From UHGV virus genome UHGV-0342645: DNA of 59,919 nucleotides; one strand, 5' to 3'. The position numbers and the translations under genes are program-made. The DNA is from a virus. Within the stretch, counting starts at the first letter, position 1; each line of letters starts with the position of its first letter. Below are positions 3,748 to 43,048 of the stretch, piece after piece. Under the pieces are notes generated by a model that was not told the DNA's origin, ran no database searches, and saw only the letters and a program-made list of their open reading frames with translations.

Positions 3748-4053
3748 CTATTTAGGCTGAATATAATTGCTTGATCCTACAAAATCAAGCGAAACATTTT
3801 CAGCTTCATAGCGTATGATTTCCTTAACCCTTAGCTTACATTCGGTCAGAGCAGTTTCTGTATCCTGTAAACGTCGGATAATATCTCTTGTGTAAACCAA
3901 AGGAATTTTCTCAACTTCCCGACATTCCACCAGTAGATGCGCGGGTAGTCTTACCTTCACTATCTGTGGAGCTGGGGGAGGTTGAGTCTGCGTCGAGCAA
4001 CCTGCGCAAATCATCAGGAATACGCTCGTTAAGATAAGCTTTGACGTCAGCAT
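3748..4053 (-). CDS. o-spanin (Rz1-like outer-membrane lipoprotein)
   Basis: Internal start MLTSKLILTSVFLMICAGCS gives signal peptide plus lipobox Cys; Pro-rich mature part; starts inside the i-spanin gene in another frame and extends past it. Confidence 0.55.
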   Translation of the reverse strand: MLTSKLILTSVFLMICAGCSTQTQPPPAPQIVKVRLPAHLLVECREVEKIPLVYTRDIIRRLQDTETALTECKLRVKEIIRYEAENVSLDFVGSSNYIQPK

Positions 4054-4387
4054 TGCTTTTCTCCAGTGTCTGCAACTTGTCCTGAAGCAACTTGTGGTTA
4101 TGTTGTTCATCTTGAATTGCAGAAGTTAGTTTCTTGAAAGAGTCCGTGTCCTTCTCCCTTTGTGCAGCAAGAAATACAACAGCCTCGCCCAGCTTTGCAT
4201 TGTCTTTCTCCACAACGGTTAAACGTTCTTCAGCCAAACTTAAATTTGATTTGTTAAGCTCGTTCTGTGACCACAGGTAGGCAGCCACCCCGCATAAAAA
4301 CACCACCGCGCCAATCATCAGGTACTCGATAAATAGACGCGGTTTAGCTTTTATAAAACTGAAGAAGTTATTTAGAATCATTTTCAT
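3911..4387 (-). CDS. i-spanin (Rz-like)
   Basis: 158 aa; N-terminal TM segment (LMIGAVVFLCGVAAYLW) then coiled-coil-like charged region; overlaps the embedded lipoprotein ORF; directly downstream of holin. Confidence 0.55.
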   Translation of the reverse strand: MKMILNNFFSFIKAKPRLFIEYLMIGAVVFLCGVAAYLWSQNELNKSNLSLAEERLTVVEKDNAKLGEAVVFLAAQREKDTDSFKKLTSAIQDEQHNHKLLQDKLQTLEKSNADVKAYLNERIPDDLRRLLDADSTSPSSTDSEGKTTRASTGGMSGS

Positions 4388-4712
4388 GTTTGCAGTCCTC
4401 TGAGTCGAGTTTGATCCCTGTCCGCGATGCTAGAAGCGACTTTAGAGCTTTTAGCGTAGCACGTGAACCCGCCCAAGCGAATAGGCCAGCAAGGCCAAAA
4501 GCGAACCAAAGGCTGATATTAAACTCCCTGTAGATCGCGTACATTATAACGCCGAAGAACGCGGCGGATAAGCCTTCAAGACATGCAATGCTTAACCGTA
4601 CTTTCTTACCAGCGTCAATTGTGCGCATGACGTAACCGAGAGCTCCCCCAATGAGGGAAATCAGAGCAAACCCCGCTAGAACTGCCCAATGTTCGTTTGA
4701 TGAGTTGAACAT
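4368..4712 (-). CDS. holin (putative)
   Basis: Internal start MFNSSNEHWAVLAGFALISLIGGALG with GGAGGG RBS; about 3 TM segments and charged C-terminus; sits between the putative endolysin and spanins. Confidence 0.5.
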   Translation of the reverse strand: MFNSSNEHWAVLAGFALISLIGGALGYVMRTIDAGKKVRLSIACLEGLSAAFFGVIMYAIYREFNISLWFAFGLAGLFAWAGSRATLKALKSLLASRTGIKLDSEDCKHENDSK

Positions 4713-17068: not shown

Positions 17069-17171
17069 TTTGTAATCCTCCGTTTTGCTTATGAGTTAAT
17101 AGTACAGTTAGACTGATCAGATGTAAAGGCAAATCGTGCTATTTTATAGATGCATTTCAAGTCTAAAGTTG

Positions 17172-17199
17172 TTGCATACATCTCAAGTCCTGCTATACT
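17172..17199 (+). promoter_or_regulatory. sigma70-type promoter
   Basis: TTGCAT-16 nt-TATACT upstream of a GGAGGG RBS. Confidence 0.5.
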
Positions 17200-17226
17200 T
17201 ACAGCATAAAGTTAACGGAGGGAACA

Positions 17227-17301
17227 ATGTTCGAGCTTTTAAAATTATTTGCGGGTGCTATTTTCGTAGCTGGTTATTTCTGGTTTATGTATATATTATG
17301 A
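17227..17301 (+). CDS. small hydrophobic peptide (24 aa)
   Basis: GGAGGG RBS 5 nt before ATG; MFELLKLFAGAIFVAGYFWFMYIL; stop overlaps the RBS of the next gene. Confidence 0.3.
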   Translation: MFELLKLFAGAIFVAGYFWFMYIL

Positions 17302-17309
17302 GGTGTGAA

Positions 17310-17618
17310 ATGAAAAAGTTAACAACCGTATTAATGTTTACGACTGCTTTTATGTTTTCTGCTAGCTGCATTAGCGCAACTAAGGATTGCCAAAAAGCGG
17401 TCACTGAGTTTCAGTCAAAGTTGCAACTTAAACGAACTGAATTGCAGACTAGCAACGACATTGCATTTTGTACAACTATTCAGCGTAAAGCTCAGCACGC
17501 AACAGTTGATGAAATTATGGAACCATTGAAAAACTTTAAAAACCCGGAACGTAAGTACTATGTGTCTATTGCCACTTATGCTTTCGTAACACGGTCTTTA
17601 GCGGAGGATTTAAAATGA
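17310..17618 (+). CDS. secreted or periplasmic small protein
   Basis: MKKLTTVLMFTTAFMFSASCISA looks like a signal peptide; GAGGTG RBS; 102 aa. Confidence 0.45.
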   Translation: MKKLTTVLMFTTAFMFSASCISATKDCQKAVTEFQSKLQLKRTELQTSNDIAFCTTIQRKAQHATVDEIMEPLKNFKNPERKYYVSIATYAFVTRSLAEDLK

Positions 17619-17920
17619 GCATTGTAAATACTATCTGCGAAGCAATCTATGCAGAGCTTATCCGTGAAAACGTAAATAATGAGGACAATAACCAAATCCA
17701 AAAGATTTTGGTTGATCATAAAACTTATGCAGAGATTCGTCACGACAATGCTTTTCCTCATTGGTGTCATATTTATTATCCGCGTCGTGAGGATGAATCT
17801 ATTGTACTTACAATCATGGGCTATGCTATTGTTCCAACTTATGAAGTACAAGGTTTTGAAATACTTCTAAGAGGTGGTACTTTAGCACCAAAAGCGGCAA
17901 AGGGAACCGCGCAAAATTGA
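17615..17920 (+). CDS. hypothetical protein
   Basis: 101-aa ORF overlapping upstream stop (ATGA). Confidence 0.4.
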   Translation: MSIVNTICEAIYAELIRENVNNEDNNQIQKILVDHKTYAEIRHDNAFPHWCHIYYPRREDESIVLTIMGYAIVPTYEVQGFEILLRGGTLAPKAAKGTAQN

Positions 17921-28697: not shown

Positions 28698-29405
28698 ATG
28701 AATATTAATCAACAAGCTCCCGAGTCTCGTTCTAAAGAAAACGATATGTATTTAGACGTGCATTCGGTATTCTCTACCATTCAGGGTGAAGGTCCGTTCT
28801 GCGGCCAGCCTGCTGTATTTGTGCGCCTTGCTGGATGTAACCTGCAATGCCCAGGCTGCGACACGGATTATACTGTTGGTCGTTCTCTTTACCACATTGT
28901 TGATATCATGCGTTTAATCGAAAGCCGTAAGCTGGAATCAGGCAATAGCACCTCACTTGTGGTTATTACTGGGGGTGAACCGTTCCGTCAGCAAATTAAC
29001 CCGCTTATTGAACAACTGTTATCGCGGGGCTATTTGGTGCAAATCGAAACTAATGGGTCTATGCCTTTACCTAAGAACTTTTCCCAGTTGCCTGTGATTG
29101 TATGTAGCCCCAAGACCTCAAAGATTCATCCTTCTGTGCTTTACCGCGCTAATGCATTTAAATATGTACTTAAAGCGTGCTGTGTAAACGTGGAAGATGG
29201 TTTACCCCTTCAAGCATTAGATCATCAAGCTACGCCATTTATCGCTAGACCTCCGAAGGGGTTCAAGGGTAAGATATATTTACAGCCAATGGACGAGCAG
29301 GATGAAGACCTTAACCACAGTAACATCCAAGCGGTTGTCCAAAGCTGTATGAAACACGGATACACGTTGCAGCTTCAGGTTCACAAATATATCGGGGTGG
29401 AATAA
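28698..29405 (+). CDS. queE: 7-carboxy-7-deazaguanine synthase (radical SAM)
   Basis: GEGPFCGQPAVFVRLAGCNLQCPGCDTDY matches the QueE Cx14CxxC radical-SAM region; GAGGA RBS. Confidence 0.8.
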   Translation: MNINQQAPESRSKENDMYLDVHSVFSTIQGEGPFCGQPAVFVRLAGCNLQCPGCDTDYTVGRSLYHIVDIMRLIESRKLESGNSTSLVVITGGEPFRQQINPLIEQLLSRGYLVQIETNGSMPLPKNFSQLPVIVCSPKTSKIHPSVLYRANAFKYVLKACCVNVEDGLPLQALDHQATPFIARPPKGFKGKIYLQPMDEQDEDLNHSNIQAVVQSCMKHGYTLQLQVHKYIGVE

Positions 29406-30054: not shown

Positions 30055-30762
30055 ATGAATAAATTAGATAAACTGGTATTCCCTGTAAAAAATCATAACT
30101 CCGCCGTTGTAGTCCTGTCTGGCGGCCAGGACAGTGTGACCTGTTTAGGTCTTGCACTTAATAACTATGATAAGGTTTACGCTATTGGTTTTGCATACGG
30201 TCAACGTCATAACATTGAGCTGGCTTGTGCTAATCAAATTTGTAAAGAGCACGATGTCCCATTTGTTGTCTTTGAATTACCTGCTTTGAAACAGATTGGG
30301 AATAGCGCTTTAATCGGGGATGAAGGTGATGTTAACGAACATCACGAACAGCACAACAACCTTCCGGCAAGCTTTGTGCCAAACCGTAATGCTCTTTTCC
30401 TCACTACCGCGCACGCTTACGCACAGAAAGTTGGCGCTCGATATGTGGTTACGGGCGTTTGTGAAACAGACTATAGCGGTTATCCGGATTGCCGCCAGCA
30501 GTTTGTAAACTTGCTTGAAGCTACATTAAACGTTGGATATGAAACTGATATCCATTTTGTTACACCGCTTATGCGTTTAAATAAAGCGGAAACGTTTGAA
30601 CTGGCGGATAAGGTTGGTTTCTTAACCACAGTAATTGAACAGTCCCATACTTGCTATAACGGTGTCCGTCGCACTCTGCATGACTGGGGCTATGGTTGCG
30701 GTGAATGCCCTGCGTGCAAACTGCGTGCTAAAGGGTACAGCGAATTTATTAGCAAAGCTTAA
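30055..30762 (+). CDS. queC: 7-cyano-7-deazaguanine synthase
   Basis: PP-loop VVLSGGQDSVTC, GVCETDYSGYPDCR and C-terminal CYNG...GCGECPAC zinc-binding motif; 235 aa with no fused amidotransferase domain. Confidence 0.85.
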   Translation: MNKLDKLVFPVKNHNSAVVVLSGGQDSVTCLGLALNNYDKVYAIGFAYGQRHNIELACANQICKEHDVPFVVFELPALKQIGNSALIGDEGDVNEHHEQHNNLPASFVPNRNALFLTTAHAYAQKVGARYVVTGVCETDYSGYPDCRQQFVNLLEATLNVGYETDIHFVTPLMRLNKAETFELADKVGFLTTVIEQSHTCYNGVRRTLHDWGYGCGECPACKLRAKGYSEFISKA

Positions 30763-30882: not shown

Positions 30883-31362
30883 ATGAAATTTATCGTCGCT
30901 TATTTGGCTGCAATTACATTCGTAAATCTGGGCTTTTCCTACCTCCCAATGCTTAACACGCCTCTTGGCGTAGTCCCCATGATGGCTTTCTTTGTAGGTA
31001 TTATCTTTGTGTTGCGTGACTACGCACAGCGTAACGCTGGCAAAGGCGTTATCCCTGCAATGATTGTGGGTTGCATCCTTAGCTGGGTATTTGGGGACCC
31101 TGCTGTTGTAGTTGCATCCGTTGCATCCTTTGCTCTTAGCGAGTTTGCGGACTATGCGGTATACACGATTACTAAGAAGCCGTTTCATCAACGTGTATTT
31201 ATCAGCTCTTTGGTAGCTGTACCAATTGACTCCATTGTGTTCTTAAGTATTATAGGTATTGTTAATCCGGGATCAATGGTAGCAATGAGCTTAAGTAAGT
31301 TCACAGCATCTGCCATCCTTTGGGTTGTTTACGAAGTTCATTCACGTACAGCGAGAGCGTAA
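30883..31362 (+). CDS. yhhQ: queuosine-precursor transporter-like membrane protein (YhhQ family, putative)
   Basis: 159-aa polytopic membrane protein with VLRDYAQRN and SEFADYAVY motifs reminiscent of YhhQ; located between queC and queD. Confidence 0.45.
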   Translation: MKFIVAYLAAITFVNLGFSYLPMLNTPLGVVPMMAFFVGIIFVLRDYAQRNAGKGVIPAMIVGCILSWVFGDPAVVVASVASFALSEFADYAVYTITKKPFHQRVFISSLVAVPIDSIVFLSIIGIVNPGSMVAMSLSKFTASAILWVVYEVHSRTARA

Positions 31363-31363
31363 A

Positions 31364-31954
31364 ATGAAAGATAATTTGAATAAAATTTGGCATCAACACG
31401 ACGGTAAAGGAATGCCTATTTTTCTTCGTAATGAGAAGTTTGAAGTTCGTTTGCGCAACGGCACACACGTTAAGAATCTATTACATGGATGGGATTGGGC
31501 TATGGAAGGGCGTTCAGCTATGGATGAGAATAGCCCTTATAAAGTTCAAGATATTATAGCCTGGCGATATATTGTTGCGGATGATTACGTCAAACAAGCC
31601 GGCGAAAACACTCGCTCCGGAGTGTGCCATCAATCTTCTTCTGGAATAAGCATAAGTAATACATTTAATGGTGCAGTTTTTACGAAATATGAACCATCTA
31701 AAATTCCCATGAATAAATATCAGAAAATTATTTATGGTAAAGATCAAAACGGCAATGTTGTAAAATGCATCGTGGACGTGTATGATGTCTTGGAAGCTTG
31801 GAAAACGACTAACCCAGCTTTACAACATTTGATTAAAAAGGCGTTGCAGCCTGGCGAACGCGGTCATAAAAGTCTGGTAGAAGACTTGAAAGATATTATT
31901 GCATCTGCACAGCGTGCGTTAGAAATTGAACAGTCTAAAGAGGTGTTAAAATGA
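31364..31954 (+). CDS. uncharacterised protein inside the 7-deazaguanine cluster
   Basis: 196-aa soluble ORF between the yhhQ-like gene and queD; start 1 nt after upstream stop, stop overlaps the queD start; no motif recognised. Confidence 0.5.
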   Translation: MKDNLNKIWHQHDGKGMPIFLRNEKFEVRLRNGTHVKNLLHGWDWAMEGRSAMDENSPYKVQDIIAWRYIVADDYVKQAGENTRSGVCHQSSSGISISNTFNGAVFTKYEPSKIPMNKYQKIIYGKDQNGNVVKCIVDVYDVLEAWKTTNPALQHLIKKALQPGERGHKSLVEDLKDIIASAQRALEIEQSKEVLK

Positions 31955-32484
31955 GCTATACAGTAATTCGTTCACATGAAATTTGTGCTGGACATCGTGT
32001 TGTAGGACATGAAAGCAAGTGTCGTCATCTTCACGGTCACAACTATAAGTTTCACTTTAAGGTTGCACCGAAGCGCGTAGAAAGCGAAAACTACATCCCG
32101 GGCGCGAAAGGTTTCTCCGTTGAAGGTAAACTGGACGATGTCGGGCGCGTTATTGATTTTAGTGTGGTTAAGACTACGCTCTGTCAGTGGCTGGAAGACA
32201 ACTGGGATCACAAGTTCCTGCACTGGGAAAATGATCCTCTCATTAAAGGCCTCGATGCTCTTTTACGTCACGACGCTGCTATAGGGTATGACGTGGTAGA
32301 GCAAGAGGACGGATCCCATTTCTTTGACTCACTGGTAGCGCTACCGTTCAACCCAACTGCGGAGAACTTAGCTGCATATATGGTTAACGTAATTGGACCG
32401 CAACTACTTGACGGACATGGTGTTCAACTTGTAGAATGCACCATCGAAGAAACTTCGAAATGCCACGTAAATTATAGCCTGTAA
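31951..32484 (+). CDS. queD: 6-carboxy-5,6,7,8-tetrahydropterin synthase
   Basis: EICAGHRVVGHESKCRHLHGHNYKFHF matches the QueD/PTPS Cys and HGH zinc-binding motif. Confidence 0.75.
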   Translation: MSYTVIRSHEICAGHRVVGHESKCRHLHGHNYKFHFKVAPKRVESENYIPGAKGFSVEGKLDDVGRVIDFSVVKTTLCQWLEDNWDHKFLHWENDPLIKGLDALLRHDAAIGYDVVEQEDGSHFFDSLVALPFNPTAENLAAYMVNVIGPQLLDGHGVQLVECTIEETSKCHVNYSL

Positions 32485-32519
32485 TATGACCACATTAACA
32501 AACAAGGAAACTGCAAACC

Positions 32520-33101
32520 ATGCGTAAAGATACTGTAAAAATTGCTATTAGTTCATTACTTTTAAATATTGAAGGTTCAACAGAACTCCGTCCTGGGTTG
32601 GAAGAGACTCCTGAACGTGTCGCTAAAGCATACCAGACGTGGTTCGGCGGTTACGATGTAGATATCGCTGGATTGTTTAAAACCTTTGAGGATGGGGCTG
32701 AAAACACCAATGAAATGGTCATTGCCCGTGATATTCCTGTATACAGTCATTGTGAGCATCACATGGCTCCTATTATCGGTCATGCTGTTGTGGGTTATGT
32801 TCCCAATGGGAAGATCGTTGGGCTCAGTAAACTGTCTCGCGTAGTTGATGCTTTTAGCCGTCGCTTGCAAGTCCAAGAGCGTCTAACTAACCAGATTGCA
32901 GACGCTATCCAGGAGCATTTAAACCCGAAAGCTGTATGCGTTTATATTGACGCCAAACATATGTGCATGGAGTCGCGCGGTGTTAAGCAGGTATGCGGCA
33001 GCTCTACCATTACCAAAGCGTTCCGGGGCGCTACAGAACTGGAGCATGGTAGCGATATTGGTAAAGAATGGCGCCGGGAGTTCCTTGAAGCTTGTAAATA
33101 A
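32520..33101 (+). CDS. folE: GTP cyclohydrolase I
   Basis: CEHHMAPIIGHAVVGYVPNGKIVGLSKLSRVVDAFSRRLQVQERLTNQIA is nearly collinear with the FolE active-site region. Confidence 0.85.
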   Translation: MRKDTVKIAISSLLLNIEGSTELRPGLEETPERVAKAYQTWFGGYDVDIAGLFKTFEDGAENTNEMVIARDIPVYSHCEHHMAPIIGHAVVGYVPNGKIVGLSKLSRVVDAFSRRLQVQERLTNQIADAIQEHLNPKAVCVYIDAKHMCMESRGVKQVCGSSTITKAFRGATELEHGSDIGKEWRREFLEACK

Positions 33102-33171
33102 TAGATAGCTTTACAGATCAAGCCCATATCGGTCATAATACTGGTATGGGCTTTTTAGTTGGTATAAGACA

Positions 33172-33729
33172 ATGGAAATTATCACAAGAGCTGAAGCAAA
33201 AGAAAGAGGTTTGAAATATTATTTTACTGGTAAGCCTTGTGCGAAAGGTCATCTTTCTGAAAGAAAGACTGTAGATGGCTATTGCATTACTTGTGACAGA
33301 GAAGCACGAAAGAAAAGAATGCGTATTTACAATAAAACAGAAGCTGCAAGGAATGCTATTAAGAGATATCATAAGTCACAGAAAGGAAAAGAAGCCCTTC
33401 AACGTTCAAAAGCTGCTTATAATTCTACTGAGAAAGGTAAAGAACAAAATAAAGAAAGGCTGAAACGCTGGGCTAAGACAGATTACGGTAAAGCTAGATC
33501 AAGATTACATTCCCTTGAAGTGCATAAGAAAAGGTCTTTAAGAATCCCTGCGTGGTCTGAAAAAGAACAAATTGAATTGTTCTACGCTAACTGCCCGGAT
33601 GGGATGGAGGTTGATCATATTATACCTCTTTGCGGTAAAAGAGTTAGTGGACTTCACGTCCTTAGTAACCTACAATACTTATCTATTGAAGAAAACAGAT
33701 CTAAGCGTAATAAATTTGAGGTGGAATAA
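33172..33729 (+). CDS. HNH homing endonuclease
   Basis: C-terminal MEVDHIIPLCGKRVSGLHVLSNLQYLSIEENRSKRNK HNH motif; N-terminal Cys/His cluster; AT-rich with AGA/AGG Arg codons unlike the flanking genes. Confidence 0.7.
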   Translation: MEIITRAEAKERGLKYYFTGKPCAKGHLSERKTVDGYCITCDREARKKRMRIYNKTEAARNAIKRYHKSQKGKEALQRSKAAYNSTEKGKEQNKERLKRWAKTDYGKARSRLHSLEVHKKRSLRIPAWSEKEQIELFYANCPDGMEVDHIIPLCGKRVSGLHVLSNLQYLSIEENRSKRNKFEVE

Positions 33730-34649
33730 TGCATCTGTTTGTTGCTGCGGTATATACCAACGGCTATAAAGCTGGTCAACAACGATATGAAAAGTTAAAC
33801 GATCGGGAAAAGGACATCGTTAATAGCCTACCAAATATTTTGGAATCATACCACTACGTTGGACGTCAGAAGTATGTTGATCAAATGCGTGCGGACGGGG
33901 CTAAAGTGTTTCTCGACTCCGGAGCATTCTCCGCGCACTCGTTAGGTGCTCACATTGATATTGTCGAATATTGCGAATACATCAAACGCAATAAAGATAT
34001 CCTGCGCGTAGAAGATGGTGCTGTAATGGCGTCAGTGCTTGATGGTATCGGTGATCCACTGCAAACCTACCGTAACCAGCTTGAAATGGAAGCACGCGGT
34101 GCTAAACCGTTACCTTGCTTTCACTTTGGGGAGGACTTCCGCTATCTCGAATATTACATGAAGAACTACGAATATATCACCATCGGGGGCATGGTAGGGC
34201 GTTCCACGGACACGCTTAAAACTTGGCTTGACCGCATGTGGGATAAATATATTTGCGATGGTAGCGGTCGCCCTAAGATTAAGCTTCATGCATTTGGTAT
34301 TACGTCCACTACCATTATGGAACGTTACCCGTGGTATAGCTGTGACTCATCCTCCTGGATTCAAGCGGCAGCGTTTGGAAGTGTGGTTACTCCTCCGTGG
34401 GGCCCGATGCGCGTATCTGACAAGTCACCGGACCGACACCATTTCGGTAAGCACGTTTCAACGCTAACTGAAATTGAACAAGACGCTGTCCTTAAATACC
34501 TTGAGCAAAACGGTTTCACTTACGAACGTTTATCAACAATCTATGAATCACGTGCTGCCTTCAACTTATGGGCGTATGGTGTAATTGCTGCAAACATTAA
34601 CGCTACCCATGACGGCACATTCCGTGATCGTGTAATGGAGTTGTTCTGA
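33729..34649 (+). CDS. dpdA: DpdA-like DNA-guanine transglycosylase (TGT family)
   Basis: KVFLDSGAFS and ITIGGMVGRS segments typical of DpdA/TGT TIM-barrel proteins; 306 aa; embedded in the que cluster. Confidence 0.65.
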   Translation: MHLFVAAVYTNGYKAGQQRYEKLNDREKDIVNSLPNILESYHYVGRQKYVDQMRADGAKVFLDSGAFSAHSLGAHIDIVEYCEYIKRNKDILRVEDGAVMASVLDGIGDPLQTYRNQLEMEARGAKPLPCFHFGEDFRYLEYYMKNYEYITIGGMVGRSTDTLKTWLDRMWDKYICDGSGRPKIKLHAFGITSTTIMERYPWYSCDSSSWIQAAAFGSVVTPPWGPMRVSDKSPDRHHFGKHVSTLTEIEQDAVLKYLEQNGFTYERLSTIYESRAAFNLWAYGVIAANINATHDGTFRDRVMELF

Positions 34650-34876
34650 TGGCTAACTTAAGAAGACCAAAAGGTAAACGTAAATATACTCACACAGGCG
34701 TAAGAATTAATTACTACGGTGAAAACAGAGTAGTATTCCTCCACAAGACACCTAAGCAGTGGCAGGATCCGTCAGGCACATGGTTTAATGCACAAGGGAA
34801 ACAAATGGGACTTTATGGATACCCTCCAACCTGTGAATTAGATTTAACCACAATTAGAGCAATCGAGGATCGCTAA
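34649..34876 (+). CDS. hypothetical basic protein
   Basis: 75-aa ORF translationally coupled to dpdA (ATGA overlap). Confidence 0.4.
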   Translation: MANLRRPKGKRKYTHTGVRINYYGENRVVFLHKTPKQWQDPSGTWFNAQGKQMGLYGYPPTCELDLTTIRAIEDR

Positions 34877-35829
34877 TGTTAGACGCTCTTAAATTTGTTC
34901 AAGGCTCCGTTGCTAAAAAGGAACTGGTAGAAGGGCTTACCAGTTTTCTTATTCGTGACGGCCAAGTACAGGGCTTTAACGGTGTTATCGCACTGGGTAG
35001 CCCTATTGAGTTGGATATTGATTGCAAGCCCGAAGCTGGACCTATGATCAAAGCTATTTCAAACTGTGATGAAACAGTGCAGTTAACAATGATGGCTAAC
35101 GGTAAGCTGAATATCAAGTCAGGTCCGTTTCGTGTTGCTATACGCTGCATTGATAAAGAAACGCCGCACGTATTCCCTGAAGGCGATTTGTACGAAATAG
35201 ACGGTGCTCGCTTTGTTCATGGTGTGAAGTCCGTTGCTCCATTTGTAGGCTCCGATGCTTCCCGTCCGTGGGCTTGCGGTATCCTGATTAATAACGGTAG
35301 CCTGTTTGCTACAAATAACGTCACTATTGCGGAATACTGGTTTGGTAATCAATTCCCTATCGATTGCATAATACCTTCCGTTGCAATTAAAGAAATACTG
35401 CGTATTAAAGCTAACCCGACGCATATTCAGGTCAGTAAAAATAACGTAACGTTTCATTATTCGGAAGGTCGCTGGTTGCGCACACAGCTTATTGATGCAG
35501 AGTGGCCCGATATACGTCGTATTTTAAATGTTCAATGCAATGCACATCCTGTTGATCCAGGTCTTTTTGAAGGCTTGCATAAAATTAAACCGTTCGCAGA
35601 AGACCGACCGCGTGTATATATTGAAAACGGTCTAGCCCGTACTCACTATGATGATGCGGAAGGTGCAAGCTTTGTATTACAGGACCGCACAATAACGGGA
35701 GTGTACAATATTGACATCCTGCTATTGCTTGAAAATGTGGTTAAGACTGCGGACTTTAGTTTATATCCGCAACCTTGCGCATTCTTTGGGGAAAATCTTC
35801 GCGGTGTATTAATTGGAGAACGTGTCTAA
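34876..35829 (+). CDS. DNA polymerase sliding clamp, beta-clamp-like (putative)
   Basis: N-terminus MLDALKFVQGS and LNIKSGPFRVAIRCIDKETPHVFPE resemble the DnaN segment around SGRSRF...DFP; directly upstream of the polymerase. Confidence 0.4.
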   Translation: MLDALKFVQGSVAKKELVEGLTSFLIRDGQVQGFNGVIALGSPIELDIDCKPEAGPMIKAISNCDETVQLTMMANGKLNIKSGPFRVAIRCIDKETPHVFPEGDLYEIDGARFVHGVKSVAPFVGSDASRPWACGILINNGSLFATNNVTIAEYWFGNQFPIDCIIPSVAIKEILRIKANPTHIQVSKNNVTFHYSEGRWLRTQLIDAEWPDIRRILNVQCNAHPVDPGLFEGLHKIKPFAEDRPRVYIENGLARTHYDDAEGASFVLQDRTITGVYNIDILLLLENVVKTADFSLYPQPCAFFGENLRGVLIGERV

Positions 35830-37814
35830 TGCGGACAGATGCTATTGGTTTCTTTTGGCAGGACTTACCGCCTGAGCCAAAAGCAAAGAAAGAAAAAGTT
35901 AAACGTTTACCGCCGGAGCGCACTTGGGAGCGCCCGGATTATTTGCCCAATCTTGAGGAAGCGCGGAACTTCCAATACAACCTGTATACGCAGGACGAAC
36001 TTATTCAAGCATGGATTAACCGCGAACCGCTTGTATACGATATTGAATGTTATCCAAATTATTTCTTAATCGCGTTTCGCGGAGTACGGACTAAGAAAGT
36101 CGTCTACTTCGAAATGTATCACGGTTGTAGTTTGAATTGCTTGTTACTTAACTGGGTAATGACAAACTTCCTTATCGTAAGCTTTAACGGTAACGGGTAC
36201 GATATGCCCATTGCTACGCTTGCGCTTAACGGCTGCTCTAATGCTCAGCTTAAAGATGCAACCGATAAAATAATCGTGGAAGACTGGCGACCTTCCGATG
36301 TGTTGAAGAGTTACCGGCTTAAGCGTATGCAGAATGTTAACCACATTGATATTATGGAAGTTCTGCCTGGGTCCGGTGGTTTGAAACAATATGGCGGACG
36401 TGTACATACTCGCCGTATGCAGGATTTACCATTTAAGCCAAATACAATGTTGACGCAGGACCAGATGTTGATTGTACGCTGGTACTGTATTAACGACCTT
36501 GTACAGACAGAAGAATGTTTTATCGCATTACAAGAACCTTTGCACCTTCGTGAAATTATGTCGCAAGAATACGGTGTGGATCTGCGTTCACGTTCCGATG
36601 CACAGATCGCAGAAGACGTAATTAAGCACGAAATCCAAGCGTTAACTGGTGTGCGTCCGCAGCGCCCCCAAGTTTATCCTGGAACAAAGTATGCATACAA
36701 CATACCGGACTTCATTCGTTTTCAAACACCTCTAATGAATAGTGTTTTGGATATTGTTCGGGACTGTCGTTTTATTGTTAGCGATAACGGTGGTGTTAGC
36801 CTACCCCCAGCGTTAACAGGGCTTGAGATTAAGATCGCGGACGGTGTCTACCGTATGGGTATTGGCGGTTTGCACAGCTCTGAAGAATGTGCTGGTCACG
36901 GTAAAGAGCCAGGTATTAAGAAGCGGGACATTGACGTAACGTCCTATTACCCTTCTATTATTCTTAATCAGGGCTTGTATCCTGAGCAGTTGGGGCCAGC
37001 GTTTCTTCGTGTTTATAAAAGCATTGTAGACCGACGTATTGCAGCTAAGCACTCAGGGGACAAGAACACAGCCAATACGCTGAAGATCGTAATCAACGGA
37101 TCGTTCGGTAAATTGGGCTCAATGTGGTCCGTACTGTACGCTCCGCAATTATTGATACAAGTTACATTAACTGGACAGTTATCACTGTTGATGCTTATTG
37201 AAGCGTTTGAACTGAACGGCGTTAAAGTAATTTCAGCTAACACGGATGGTATTGTGGTTAAGTACCCTGACCACATGCAGGACTTCGTTGATAACATGAT
37301 CAAGTGGTGGGAGTCCGTGACAGGCTTTGAAATGGAATCCAACTACTATGACAAGCTGTACAGTGCTAACGTCAATAACTATGTTGCAGTAAAAGAACCT
37401 GATGAGGAAGGAAATGTTGAAATCAAACGTAAAGGCTGGTTCGCAAAAACAGGGCTTCAAAAGAACTGTACTGGTGAAATTATTATGGAAGCTGTATGTG
37501 AATGTTTGGCCCACGGTACGCCTGTTTCTCGTACTATACGCAATTGCAACGATATTAGAAAATTCATTATCCTACGTGCGGTGAAAGGCGGCGCAGTATG
37601 GAATGGCGAATTTTTGGGTAAGGTTGTACGCTGGTACTTAAGCACTAATGAAGAAACACCTGAAATAATCTATGCTAACTCGGGCAACCGTGTAGCTGGT
37701 AGTGCTGGAGGCGTACCGATCATGACGTTACCGGATAAAGTGCCGGACGATATAGATTATGACGCTTACATAGCTAAGGCTGAAAAGTATCTCGAAGACA
37801 TGGGATACGCCTAA
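35829..37814 (+). CDS. family B DNA polymerase
   Basis: Exonuclease motifs YDIECYP, NGYDMPIA, YCINDL; polymerase motifs DVTSYYPSIIL (motif A), KIVINGSFGKLG (motif B), ISANTDGIVV (motif C). Confidence 0.75.
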   Translation: MRTDAIGFFWQDLPPEPKAKKEKVKRLPPERTWERPDYLPNLEEARNFQYNLYTQDELIQAWINREPLVYDIECYPNYFLIAFRGVRTKKVVYFEMYHGCSLNCLLLNWVMTNFLIVSFNGNGYDMPIATLALNGCSNAQLKDATDKIIVEDWRPSDVLKSYRLKRMQNVNHIDIMEVLPGSGGLKQYGGRVHTRRMQDLPFKPNTMLTQDQMLIVRWYCINDLVQTEECFIALQEPLHLREIMSQEYGVDLRSRSDAQIAEDVIKHEIQALTGVRPQRPQVYPGTKYAYNIPDFIRFQTPLMNSVLDIVRDCRFIVSDNGGVSLPPALTGLEIKIADGVYRMGIGGLHSSEECAGHGKEPGIKKRDIDVTSYYPSIILNQGLYPEQLGPAFLRVYKSIVDRRIAAKHSGDKNTANTLKIVINGSFGKLGSMWSVLYAPQLLIQVTLTGQLSLLMLIEAFELNGVKVISANTDGIVVKYPDHMQDFVDNMIKWWESVTGFEMESNYYDKLYSANVNNYVAVKEPDEEGNVEIKRKGWFAKTGLQKNCTGEIIMEAVCECLAHGTPVSRTIRNCNDIRKFIILRAVKGGAVWNGEFLGKVVRWYLSTNEETPEIIYANSGNRVAGSAGGVPIMTLPDKVPDDIDYDAYIAKAEKYLEDMGYA

Positions 37815-42772: not shown

Positions 42773-43048
42773 TTAAGCCCATTCTCTTAGAGGTTGATCA
42801 AGAATAACACTGTGGTTACTGTACTGGGTAAAATCAAATGAGTCATCAATAACTCTTACGTTTACATAATATCCTTCATTTTGAATATATGTTGGTTCGT
42901 CTGATAGACTTTCAACTTCTGTATAGGTGTAGCCTATTACGTCAAGTAAAATCTGGTTTTGCAAAGTTTCATTGTATTCCCAATCAATAACCACAAGGAA
43001 ATCTTCAAATGCTTTCTTATCCTTAAATTTCATCGTTAAGTCTTTCAT
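42773..43048 (-). CDS. hypothetical protein
   Basis: 91-aa acidic ORF between the two fibre genes. Confidence 0.4.
   Translation of the reverse strand: MKDLTMKFKDKKAFEDFLVVIDWEYNETLQNQILLDVIGYTYTEVESLSDEPTYIQNEGYYVNVRVIDDSFDFTQYSNHSVILDQPLREWA

Follow-up and report, generated by a model that had tools for sequence, protein, structure and literature searches.

What is a 185-codon open reading frame doing between folE and dpdA, in the 7-deazaguanine cluster of an Escherichia coli phage, and how did it come to be there? The window, meaning the whole stretch of DNA analysed here, is 59,919 nucleotides long and represents nearly the whole genome of a Seuratvirus (subfamily Queuovirinae; CAjan/Seurat-like siphoviruses of E. 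coli), and 35 Seuratvirus records match its positions 32400–34800 with 88–95% nucleotide identity. The reading frame probably encodes a free-standing HNH homing endonuclease, carried as a cassette at the Queuovirinae folE-terminator/dpdA slot, with a predicted cleavage activity and a putative target.

The 7-deazaguanine cluster of the window is followed by replication genes. It contains queE (28698–29405), queC (30055–30762), a Vut_1-like transporter, queD (31951–32484) and folE, encoding GTP cyclohydrolase I (32520–33101, plus strand; Pfam PF01227, E = 1.8e-62; named FolE in relatives). The 3' end of folE forms part of the left homology region of the cassette, and a terminator scan detected a terminator-like hairpin 3' of the gene (33120–33153, plus strand; 14 pairs, then TTTAGT) leading into a T-run. 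The frame of interest (33172–33729, plus strand) extends from an ATG at 33172 to a TAA at 33729, confirming the coordinates, the length of 185 residues and the position between folE and dpdA given by an earlier sequence-only reading of this locus. Its assignment as a predicted homing-type HNH (HNN-variant) endonuclease is based on ORF calls, PHROG 1035, an AlphaFold2 model, and profile and Foldseek matches. Downstream lies dpdA, encoding the 7-deazaguanine DNA transglycosylase (33729–34649, plus strand; PHROG 887, E = 1.2e-94; named DpdA or tRNA-ribosyltransferase in relatives), followed by a 75-aa ORF, the sliding clamp and a B-family DNA polymerase.

Several features of this neighbourhood were recorded along the way. 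The window DpdA matches no Pfam family, and reaches the NCBIfam and PADLOC DpdA models at E of about 0.001–0.002 (16–17 bits, with a cut-off of 200). The 75-aa ORF in the dpdA-clamp interval (34649–34876; phrog_38388) is kept in all Seuratviruses examined. The mechanical call for the DNA polymerase (35775–37814) begins at a TTG within the clamp gene; the polymerase start in relatives coincides with the clamp stop codon, so the start in the window is probably near 35829. Further mosaic patches, with 45–70% identity to all compared Seuratviruses, lie at 31400–31700, 32000–32300 and 32500–32600, and fall in ORF 31325–31954 (phrog_23361), in the middle of queD and at the FolE N-terminus. The latter reads MRKDTVKIAISS… in the window and MNKTILEANIIS… in CAjan, and of the Seuratviruses compared only OddieOddie has the window version.

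The architecture of the protein was examined by scoring residue conservation over an alignment of 72 homologues. Residues 15–44 (33214–33303, plus strand) form a CHCC zinc-knuckle-like module, presumed to bind DNA, with the pattern Y-F-T-G-K-P-C-x2-G-H...C-x2-C, in which C23, H27, C38 and C41 are invariant, confirming the N-terminal Cys/His cluster seen in the sequence-only reading. PHROG 1081 (67 positions) matches residues 1–50 (E = 1.9e-18). A Lys/Arg-rich helical linker follows (residues 45–122; 33304–33537, plus strand), and is the region of greatest length variation among homologues, which span 147–191 residues. The C-terminal domain (33538–33726, plus strand), a predicted catalytic domain of the beta-beta-alpha-metal (HNH) type, ends with EVDHIIPLCGKRVSGLHVLSNLQYLSIEENRSKRNK and contains the conserved block P-x-W...F-Y-x-N-C-P-x-G-x-E-V-D-H-I-I-P-L-x-G-x2-V-S-G-L-H-V-x2-N-L-Q-Y-L-x3-E-N-x2-K-x-N. 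D148 and H149 (codons at 33613–33618) are invariant, and N166 and N175, located further 3', are nearly so. The corresponding HNN residues of SpCas9 are D839/H840/N854/N863.

The AlphaFold2 model built with the 72-homologue alignment (pLDDT 93.4) contains long helices at residues 39–122 and a beta-beta-alpha unit at 145–178, with strands at 145–149 and 167–171 and a helix at 172–178. A PDB sequence search with the single protein gave no match; only the family profile of 72 sequences reached Cas9 HNH domains, aligning with that of SaCas9 over YEVDHIIP...N...EEN-KKGN (E = 0.004). The top Foldseek matches in the PDB are likewise HNH domains, those of type I-F_HNH Cascade, Cas9 and the Gme nicking enzyme, with probability up to 0.97 and, owing to the small size of the unit, E of about 0.1. 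The modelled unit carries the hallmarks of the superfamily, an Asp before a putative catalytic His, a structural Asn and a metal-binding Asn. Together, the conserved residues, the modelled fold, and the SaCas9 profile and Foldseek matches assign the protein to the HNN variant of HNH nucleases lacking Cys4 zinc sites, and we infer that the 185-residue protein has nuclease activity.

The canonical HNH motif proposed for the C-terminus therefore stands as a conserved nuclease motif, but as an H-N-N variant without flanking Cys pairs that scores below the Pfam HNH gathering cut-off (PF01844; 12.2 bits against 21.4, E = 0.22). Homologues also score weakly in Pfam (NP1, E = 0.02; JenP1 against HNH_4, E = 0.17). 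A search of NCBIfam with the endonuclease returned nothing, the PADLOC defence-system models gave no family at E up to 1, and no paralogue was found within the window at E < 0.1.

The base composition of the frame is unusual. Its GC content of 0.366 is the second lowest, and its GC3 of 0.26 among the three lowest, of the 87 ORFs with at least 60 codons, confirming that it is visibly more AT-rich than folE (0.457) and dpdA (0.463). The reported use of AGA/AGG for arginine, unlike the flanking genes, was also borne out: these codons account for 14 of its 19 Arg codons, compared with 0/12 in folE, 0/19 in dpdA and 151/933 (16%) in the remaining genome (Fisher p = 7e-8). A CAI-like index over all codons, computed leave-one-out, does not deviate (z = -0.01), and as a test of foreignness such a whole-gene index does not discriminate. 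The claim of foreign codon usage is thus correct for arginine codons and GC3 but not for codon adaptation as a whole, and the foreign signal is limited to these two features. The Lys/Glu/Arg-rich composition of the protein adds to the low GC content. Elsewhere, the 75-aa ORF 3' of dpdA also prefers AGA/AGG (5/7 Arg codons), and small AT-rich ORFs at 17136–17920 and 42773–43048 (GC 0.33–0.38, GC3 0.26–0.36) are candidate recently exchanged modules; 17136–17618 has no PHROG assignment, while the others belong to phrog_25787 and phrog_1361.

Homologues of about 50% identity that occupy the same slot in other lineages are also AT-rich relative to their neighbours. JenP1 has an endonuclease GC of 0.346 with 14/17 AGA/AGG arginines (neighbours 0.43–0.45), and L014, a Seuratvirus-like contig from Logan SRR26954478, has 0.349 with 16/28 (neighbours 0.45–0.46). 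GC3 is 0.565 in NP1 (neighbours 0.74–0.77) and 0.564 in the metagenomic lineage L015 (neighbours 0.70–0.72); in GC-rich hosts the bias is only partly ameliorated. Because these diverged homologues share it, the AT-rich composition is best read as a persistent trait of the endonuclease lineage, and composition alone, as these comparisons suggest, does not prove recent arrival. The bias could result from weak selection on a selfish gene or from codons suited to low expression. Of the proposal that the compositional pattern marks a recently acquired element, the recency finds support in the horizontal spread of the cassette described below, but is not proved by the composition itself.

The distribution of the gene was determined by tblastn. 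Within the phage collection, a gene encoding a 97.3–99.5% identical protein occurs at the same place in only five Seuratviruses (KS_A3, KS_S4, SHIN8, ECP2304 and STP-SP5), and all five copies are named "hypothetical protein" in GenBank. Close relatives that are about 94% identical to the window downstream of the cassette lack the gene. In CAjan, Seurat and OddieOddie, the slot is filled by an unrelated 68-aa ORF (phrog_20065; L001 2284–2490, L004 2302–2508 and L010 3274–3480, respectively); the match span fits this allele in about 25 Seuratvirus records, some 20 of them beyond these phages, and the allele itself was checked in three. This ORF makes use of the Shine-Dalgarno of dpdA, whose start it overlaps, and the absence of the ORF from SA80RD and slur01 indicates that it is itself an insertion polymorphism. 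It was suspected to be a truncated remnant of the endonuclease, given the PHROG 1081 match to residues 1–50, and this was rejected, as it belongs to another family and aligns at chance level. SA80RD has a truly empty site, consisting of the terminator, CATTGGAGGTTTATTTAAGAT and the dpdA ATG. In slur01 (L003), a different endonuclease with HNH_3 and NUMOD3 domains (phrog_1872; 2247–2705) lies directly 3' of folE (1619–2245) and upstream of the terminator; the folE-dpdA interval is therefore a hot spot shared by two or more families of endonuclease. The C-terminus of slur01 FolE also differs, ending in …TNYQRIR, compared with …EFLEACK.

The same pattern of presence and absence was observed in two other genera. 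In Nonagvirus, four or five carriers (JenP1, SE1/SE1Kor, SP8 and FritzHoffmann) contrast with nine phages without the gene (9g, ChristophMerian, BRET, JenP2, JenK1, HdK1, HdSG1, ESCO3 and PD328). In Nipunavirus, the gene is present in NP1, PaMx25, JG012, PAB2 and Sew_P3, and absent from eight others (DoCa3, PAJD-1, Quinobequin-P09, TIVP-H6, VPv62, BL5, pPA-3099-2aT.3 and JG054). Two metagenomic Queuovirinae-like lineages, L015 and L100, carry a homologue in the same folE-dpdA slot. These same-slot homologues are about 50% identical to the window protein, and the lineages at the slot share about 45–57% identity with one another. In three genera, close relatives thus differ in whether they carry the gene at a single conserved site, and the comparison with related phages that the sequence-only reading had proposed came out in its favour: it had named an insert shared by all relatives with native codon usage as the result that would count against it, and most relatives lack the gene.

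More distant homologues are found in other settings. A 42%-identical homologue on a Logan contig from SRR32119632 (L099, 2501–3001) lies upstream of queD rather than dpdA, in the order queE, queC, orf162, HNH, queD, x, folE, dpdA-like. Remoter relatives occur in unrelated contexts, in a dNMP kinase/primase interval (41% identity to the query; L101), on a 177-kb contig (43%; L018) and in T7-like early regions (about 31%). A scan of IMG/VR gave 80 loci with distant relatives, of which none adjoins dpdA or folE, and added no close relatives. Such a scatter of remote homologues (30–41% identity) over unrelated contexts in many phages would be expected of mobile endonucleases.

The boundaries of the insert were defined by comparing alleles. 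The cassette spans about 680 bp (~33157–33834), from the folE terminator to about nucleotide 106 of dpdA. To its left, filled, empty (SA80RD) and 68-aa-ORF (CAjan) alleles are identical up to TTTTTAGT, and divergence from endonuclease-free alleles starts at 33157, directly after the terminator T-run. Alignments with CAjan, SA80RD and L014 define a cassette-specific leader, TGGTATAAGACA..., with a weak ribosome-binding site (33157–33171, plus strand). At the other end of the gene, the sequence reveals a GAGGTGG Shine-Dalgarno for dpdA within the 3' end of the endonuclease, together with a TAATG stop/start overlap (33718–33731, plus strand), and this segment is unchanged in L014 despite a 51%-identical endonuclease core. 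The cassette always has the same position, framed by the folE terminator on one side and the start of dpdA on the other. In all three genera, the insertion point is either the ribosome-binding site or the start codon of dpdA, and the start of dpdA is rebuilt in overlap with the stop codon of the endonuclease. In Nipunavirus, 440 bp separate the dpdA GGAGG Shine-Dalgarno from its ATG; the endonuclease is served by this Shine-Dalgarno and ends in a TGA that overlaps the ATG of dpdA. In Nonagvirus, the dpdA ATGCACA start is taken over by the endonuclease, whose 3' end makes a new dpdA start.

The cassette breaks no ORF, sits downstream of the terminator hairpin, and supplies the Shine-Dalgarno and start codon of dpdA. 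The description of a selfish insert splitting a biosynthetic operon is therefore right about its place between folE and dpdA, but overstates the disruption. A search of the cassette ends revealed no terminal inverted repeats or target duplication, only short chance repeats off the boundaries; the cassette is thus not a transposon, and an insertion sequence was rejected on the same grounds.

The right boundary lies within dpdA. Mismatch profiles against non-carriers delimit a divergent block covering codons 1–36 (33729–33834, plus strand), which is a candidate co-conversion tract and self-immunity allele. Between the window and OddieOddie, dpdA has 42 mismatches in nucleotides 1–106 and 6 in the next 110, and DpdA has 13 amino acid changes in residues 1–36 and 1 in the other 270. 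More generally, carriers and non-carriers differ by 10–13 mismatches per 30 nt over the first ~120 nt of dpdA in Seuratvirus and ~150 nt in Nonagvirus, followed by an abrupt drop to 0–3 per 30 nt. This sharply bounded block, about 40% divergent, separates carriers from non-carriers in both genera; it stops at the conserved ILESYHYVG codons, and its variant form is nearly identical among all carriers. The mobile HNH gene at this slot is thus not the simple insertion first described, but part of a replacement cassette that includes the divergent first ~106 nt of dpdA. The signal is weaker in Nipunavirus, where a pair otherwise 98.6% identical, and identical over the 122 nt left of the insert, shows silent changes clustered within the first ~180 nt. 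These few silent differences could represent plain co-conversion from a slightly diverged donor rather than an immunity allele, and no positions that consistently differ between carrier and non-carrier dpdA formed a signature shared by all three genera.

Comparison of the cassette with its background indicates horizontal spread. The window and the carrier STP-SP5 are 81.5% identical on the left (31200–33156), 98.1% within the cassette (33157–33834) and 83.3% on the right (33835–36200). For the non-carrier OddieOddie, the corresponding values are 84.8%, 58.2% and 94.0%, so that it is nearer to the window than the carrier is, mainly downstream of the cassette. A profile in steps of 100 nt against STP-SP5 shows a plateau of 95–100% exactly at 33100–33899. 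Carriers thus do not form a backbone clade, and the cassette has moved recently relative to backbone divergence; its conservation above background, together with its linked flank, indicates that it spread horizontally. The contig L014 carries another endonuclease allele (4001–4576; 51% amino acid identity to the window), which is near-identical to that of the window in the first ~95 nt and last ~25 nt of the ORF and in the variant dpdA block. These shared ends around a diverged core indicate that the endonuclease core has been exchanged between fixed cassette ends. Within Nonagvirus, the JenP1 and FritzHoffmann endonucleases are 57% identical.

The same data bear on the alternative that the gene is an ancestral, vertically inherited and non-mobile accessory of the Queuovirinae 7-deazaguanine cluster that has been lost many times. 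Same-slot homologues in no fewer than five lineages (Seuratvirus, Nonagvirus, Nipunavirus, L015 and L100), with a pairwise identity of about 50% that resembles the 45–54% of the neighbouring sliding clamp, are in keeping with such a history, and old lineages at one site with about 45–57% identity would also fit long residence with repeated loss. We nevertheless regard this explanation as improbable: backbones with no more than about 82% identity share a cassette that is 98% identical, the window has a non-carrier relative nearer to it than one of the carriers, one genus contains two 51%-identical alleles with identical ends, and JenP1 and FritzHoffmann diverge to 57% within another. Loss alone also leaves the sharply bounded divergent dpdA block unexplained.

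Alternatively, the protein may be a domesticated nuclease serving DpdA or the modification pathway, nicking DNA for base exchange, degrading unmodified DNA or cutting the dpdA of rivals in co-infection. Its tight, recurrent linkage and translational coupling to dpdA, the presence of one relative elsewhere in the same que cluster and the enrichment of its closest relatives in 7-deazaguanine clusters agree with such a role. Modification with dPreQ0 and dG+ has been demonstrated in CAjan and 9g, as stated in PMC8594841 citing Hutinet et al.; these reference phages lack the gene, so modification does not require it. In every genus, the majority of members are likewise without it, and no defence-system model was matched, making domestication an equally poor prospect.

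Two further identities are very improbable. The PHROG label of the family, "endonuclease VII" (PHROG 1035, E = 5e-16), which several GenBank homologues also bear as a name, would suggest a T4 endonuclease VII-type resolvase or an F-CphI/DHHRN-family enzyme. Members of that family have a central DHDH, zinc ligands CX2-4C at the N-terminal and CX2C at the C-terminal side, and conserved Arg and Asn residues (PMC6083498). Here the motif is VDHII without conserved Cys pairs around it, Pfam Endonuclease_7 gives no match even at E up to 10, and most relatives would not be able to do without a resolvase. A packaging role as an HNH factor associated with terminase (HK97 gp74 type; many HNH proteins of phages assist terminase), or a state of inactivity and decay, for which the weak ribosome-binding site might speak, is hardly credible for an intact ORF that keeps all invariant residues, is 97–99.5% identical among carriers, is missing from most relatives and does not adjoin terminase genes.

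The preferred reading is thus a homing endonuclease, as the sequence-only reading had proposed in calling it a selfish HNH element; its sporadic presence, single junction and 98.1% identical cassette between flanks of 81–83% all agree. In intronless homing by free-standing phage endonucleases, the site of cleavage does not coincide with that of insertion, and the intervening sequence is obligatorily co-converted (PMC2988022). Presence/absence polymorphism, a shared junction, a co-converted flank and horizontal spread, taken together, constitute the signature of this process. In the proposed pathway, a carrier phage and a non-carrier relative would infect one cell, where the endonuclease would bind DNA via the CHCC knuckle and the basic helical linker. 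The beta-beta-alpha-metal site (D148/H149/N166/N175) would then cut or nick the non-carrier genome. The target gene is presumably dpdA, and we infer that the target lies within its 5' ~100–150 nt, with the cut falling in or near this segment. Repair by recombination would bring the endonuclease gene into the cut genome along with the divergent 5' block of the carrier's dpdA, and the block would in turn shield carriers from self-cleavage, acting as a putative immunity allele. The cost to the phage may be low, with only the dpdA leader replaced, a new Shine-Dalgarno supplied and translational coupling to dpdA established.

The arrangement resembles that of the T-even endonucleases MobA, MobE and Seg (SegF, SegG), which are free-standing intergenic genes, sporadic among close relatives, with co-conversion of the flanking gene and presumed cleavage in a neighbouring conserved gene, offset from the insertion (PMC2988022, PMC2790892). 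In T4 Mob proteins the HNH domain leads and is followed by a distinct C-terminal region, whereas here a CHCC knuckle and basic helical linker precede a C-terminal HNN domain, and no sequence relationship between the two is detectable. Unlike for Mob and Seg, the DNA of the host phage is modified with 7-deazaguanine, and the activity of the window endonuclease is a predicted one. The Cas9 and type I-F_HNH Cascade HNH domains, its best PDB profile and fold matches, share the D-H...N...N variant without Cys4 zinc sites, but the likeness spans only the catalytic unit of about 60 residues; the window protein has no RNA guide, and its DNA-binding modules are entirely different. The slur01 gene, of the I-HmuI/HNH_3 + NUMOD3 type, is likewise a phage homing-type HNH in the folE-dpdA interval, but belongs to an unrelated subfamily and is inserted upstream of the terminator, where it replaces the C-terminal end of FolE. 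The closest named counterpart is the "homing endonuclease" of Pseudomonas phage NP1 (AND74885.1), with about 50% amino acid identity and the same folE-HNH-dpdA position, and an "HNH homing endonuclease" box has been drawn in que-tgt clusters in Fig. 4 of the Vid5 paper (PMC6266253). Both are annotations only, and beyond that figure label the literature searched yielded no study of the junctions, of the polymorphism or of the dpdA block linked to the gene.

Apart from its dpdA-linked features, the cassette is a textbook selfish element. A bolder and rather doubtful extension is that these proteins form a homing endonuclease clade that specialises in the dpdA 5' end, has tracked the 7-deazaguanine cluster since before the Queuovirinae genera split and has swapped catalytic and recognition cores between fixed ends. 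Such enzymes would have to tolerate, avoid or exploit modified DNA, as the substrate genome would have about 1/4–1/3 of its G replaced by 7-deazaguanines, and cutting the dpdA of a rival would be a weapon in inter-phage competition.

The finding also exposes an annotation gap, since Pfam, NCBIfam and PADLOC all miss this endonuclease family. For the Queuovirinae, the cassette explains a recombination hot spot in the best-studied phage 7-deazaguanine modification cluster, and the 13 substitutions in residues 1–36 of carrier DpdA are accounted for by the dpdA block hitch-hiking with the endonuclease. If its target is in dpdA, the enzyme could be used to select or engineer Queuovirinae phages, and could serve to study the way in which a protein nuclease deals with 7-deazaguanine DNA.
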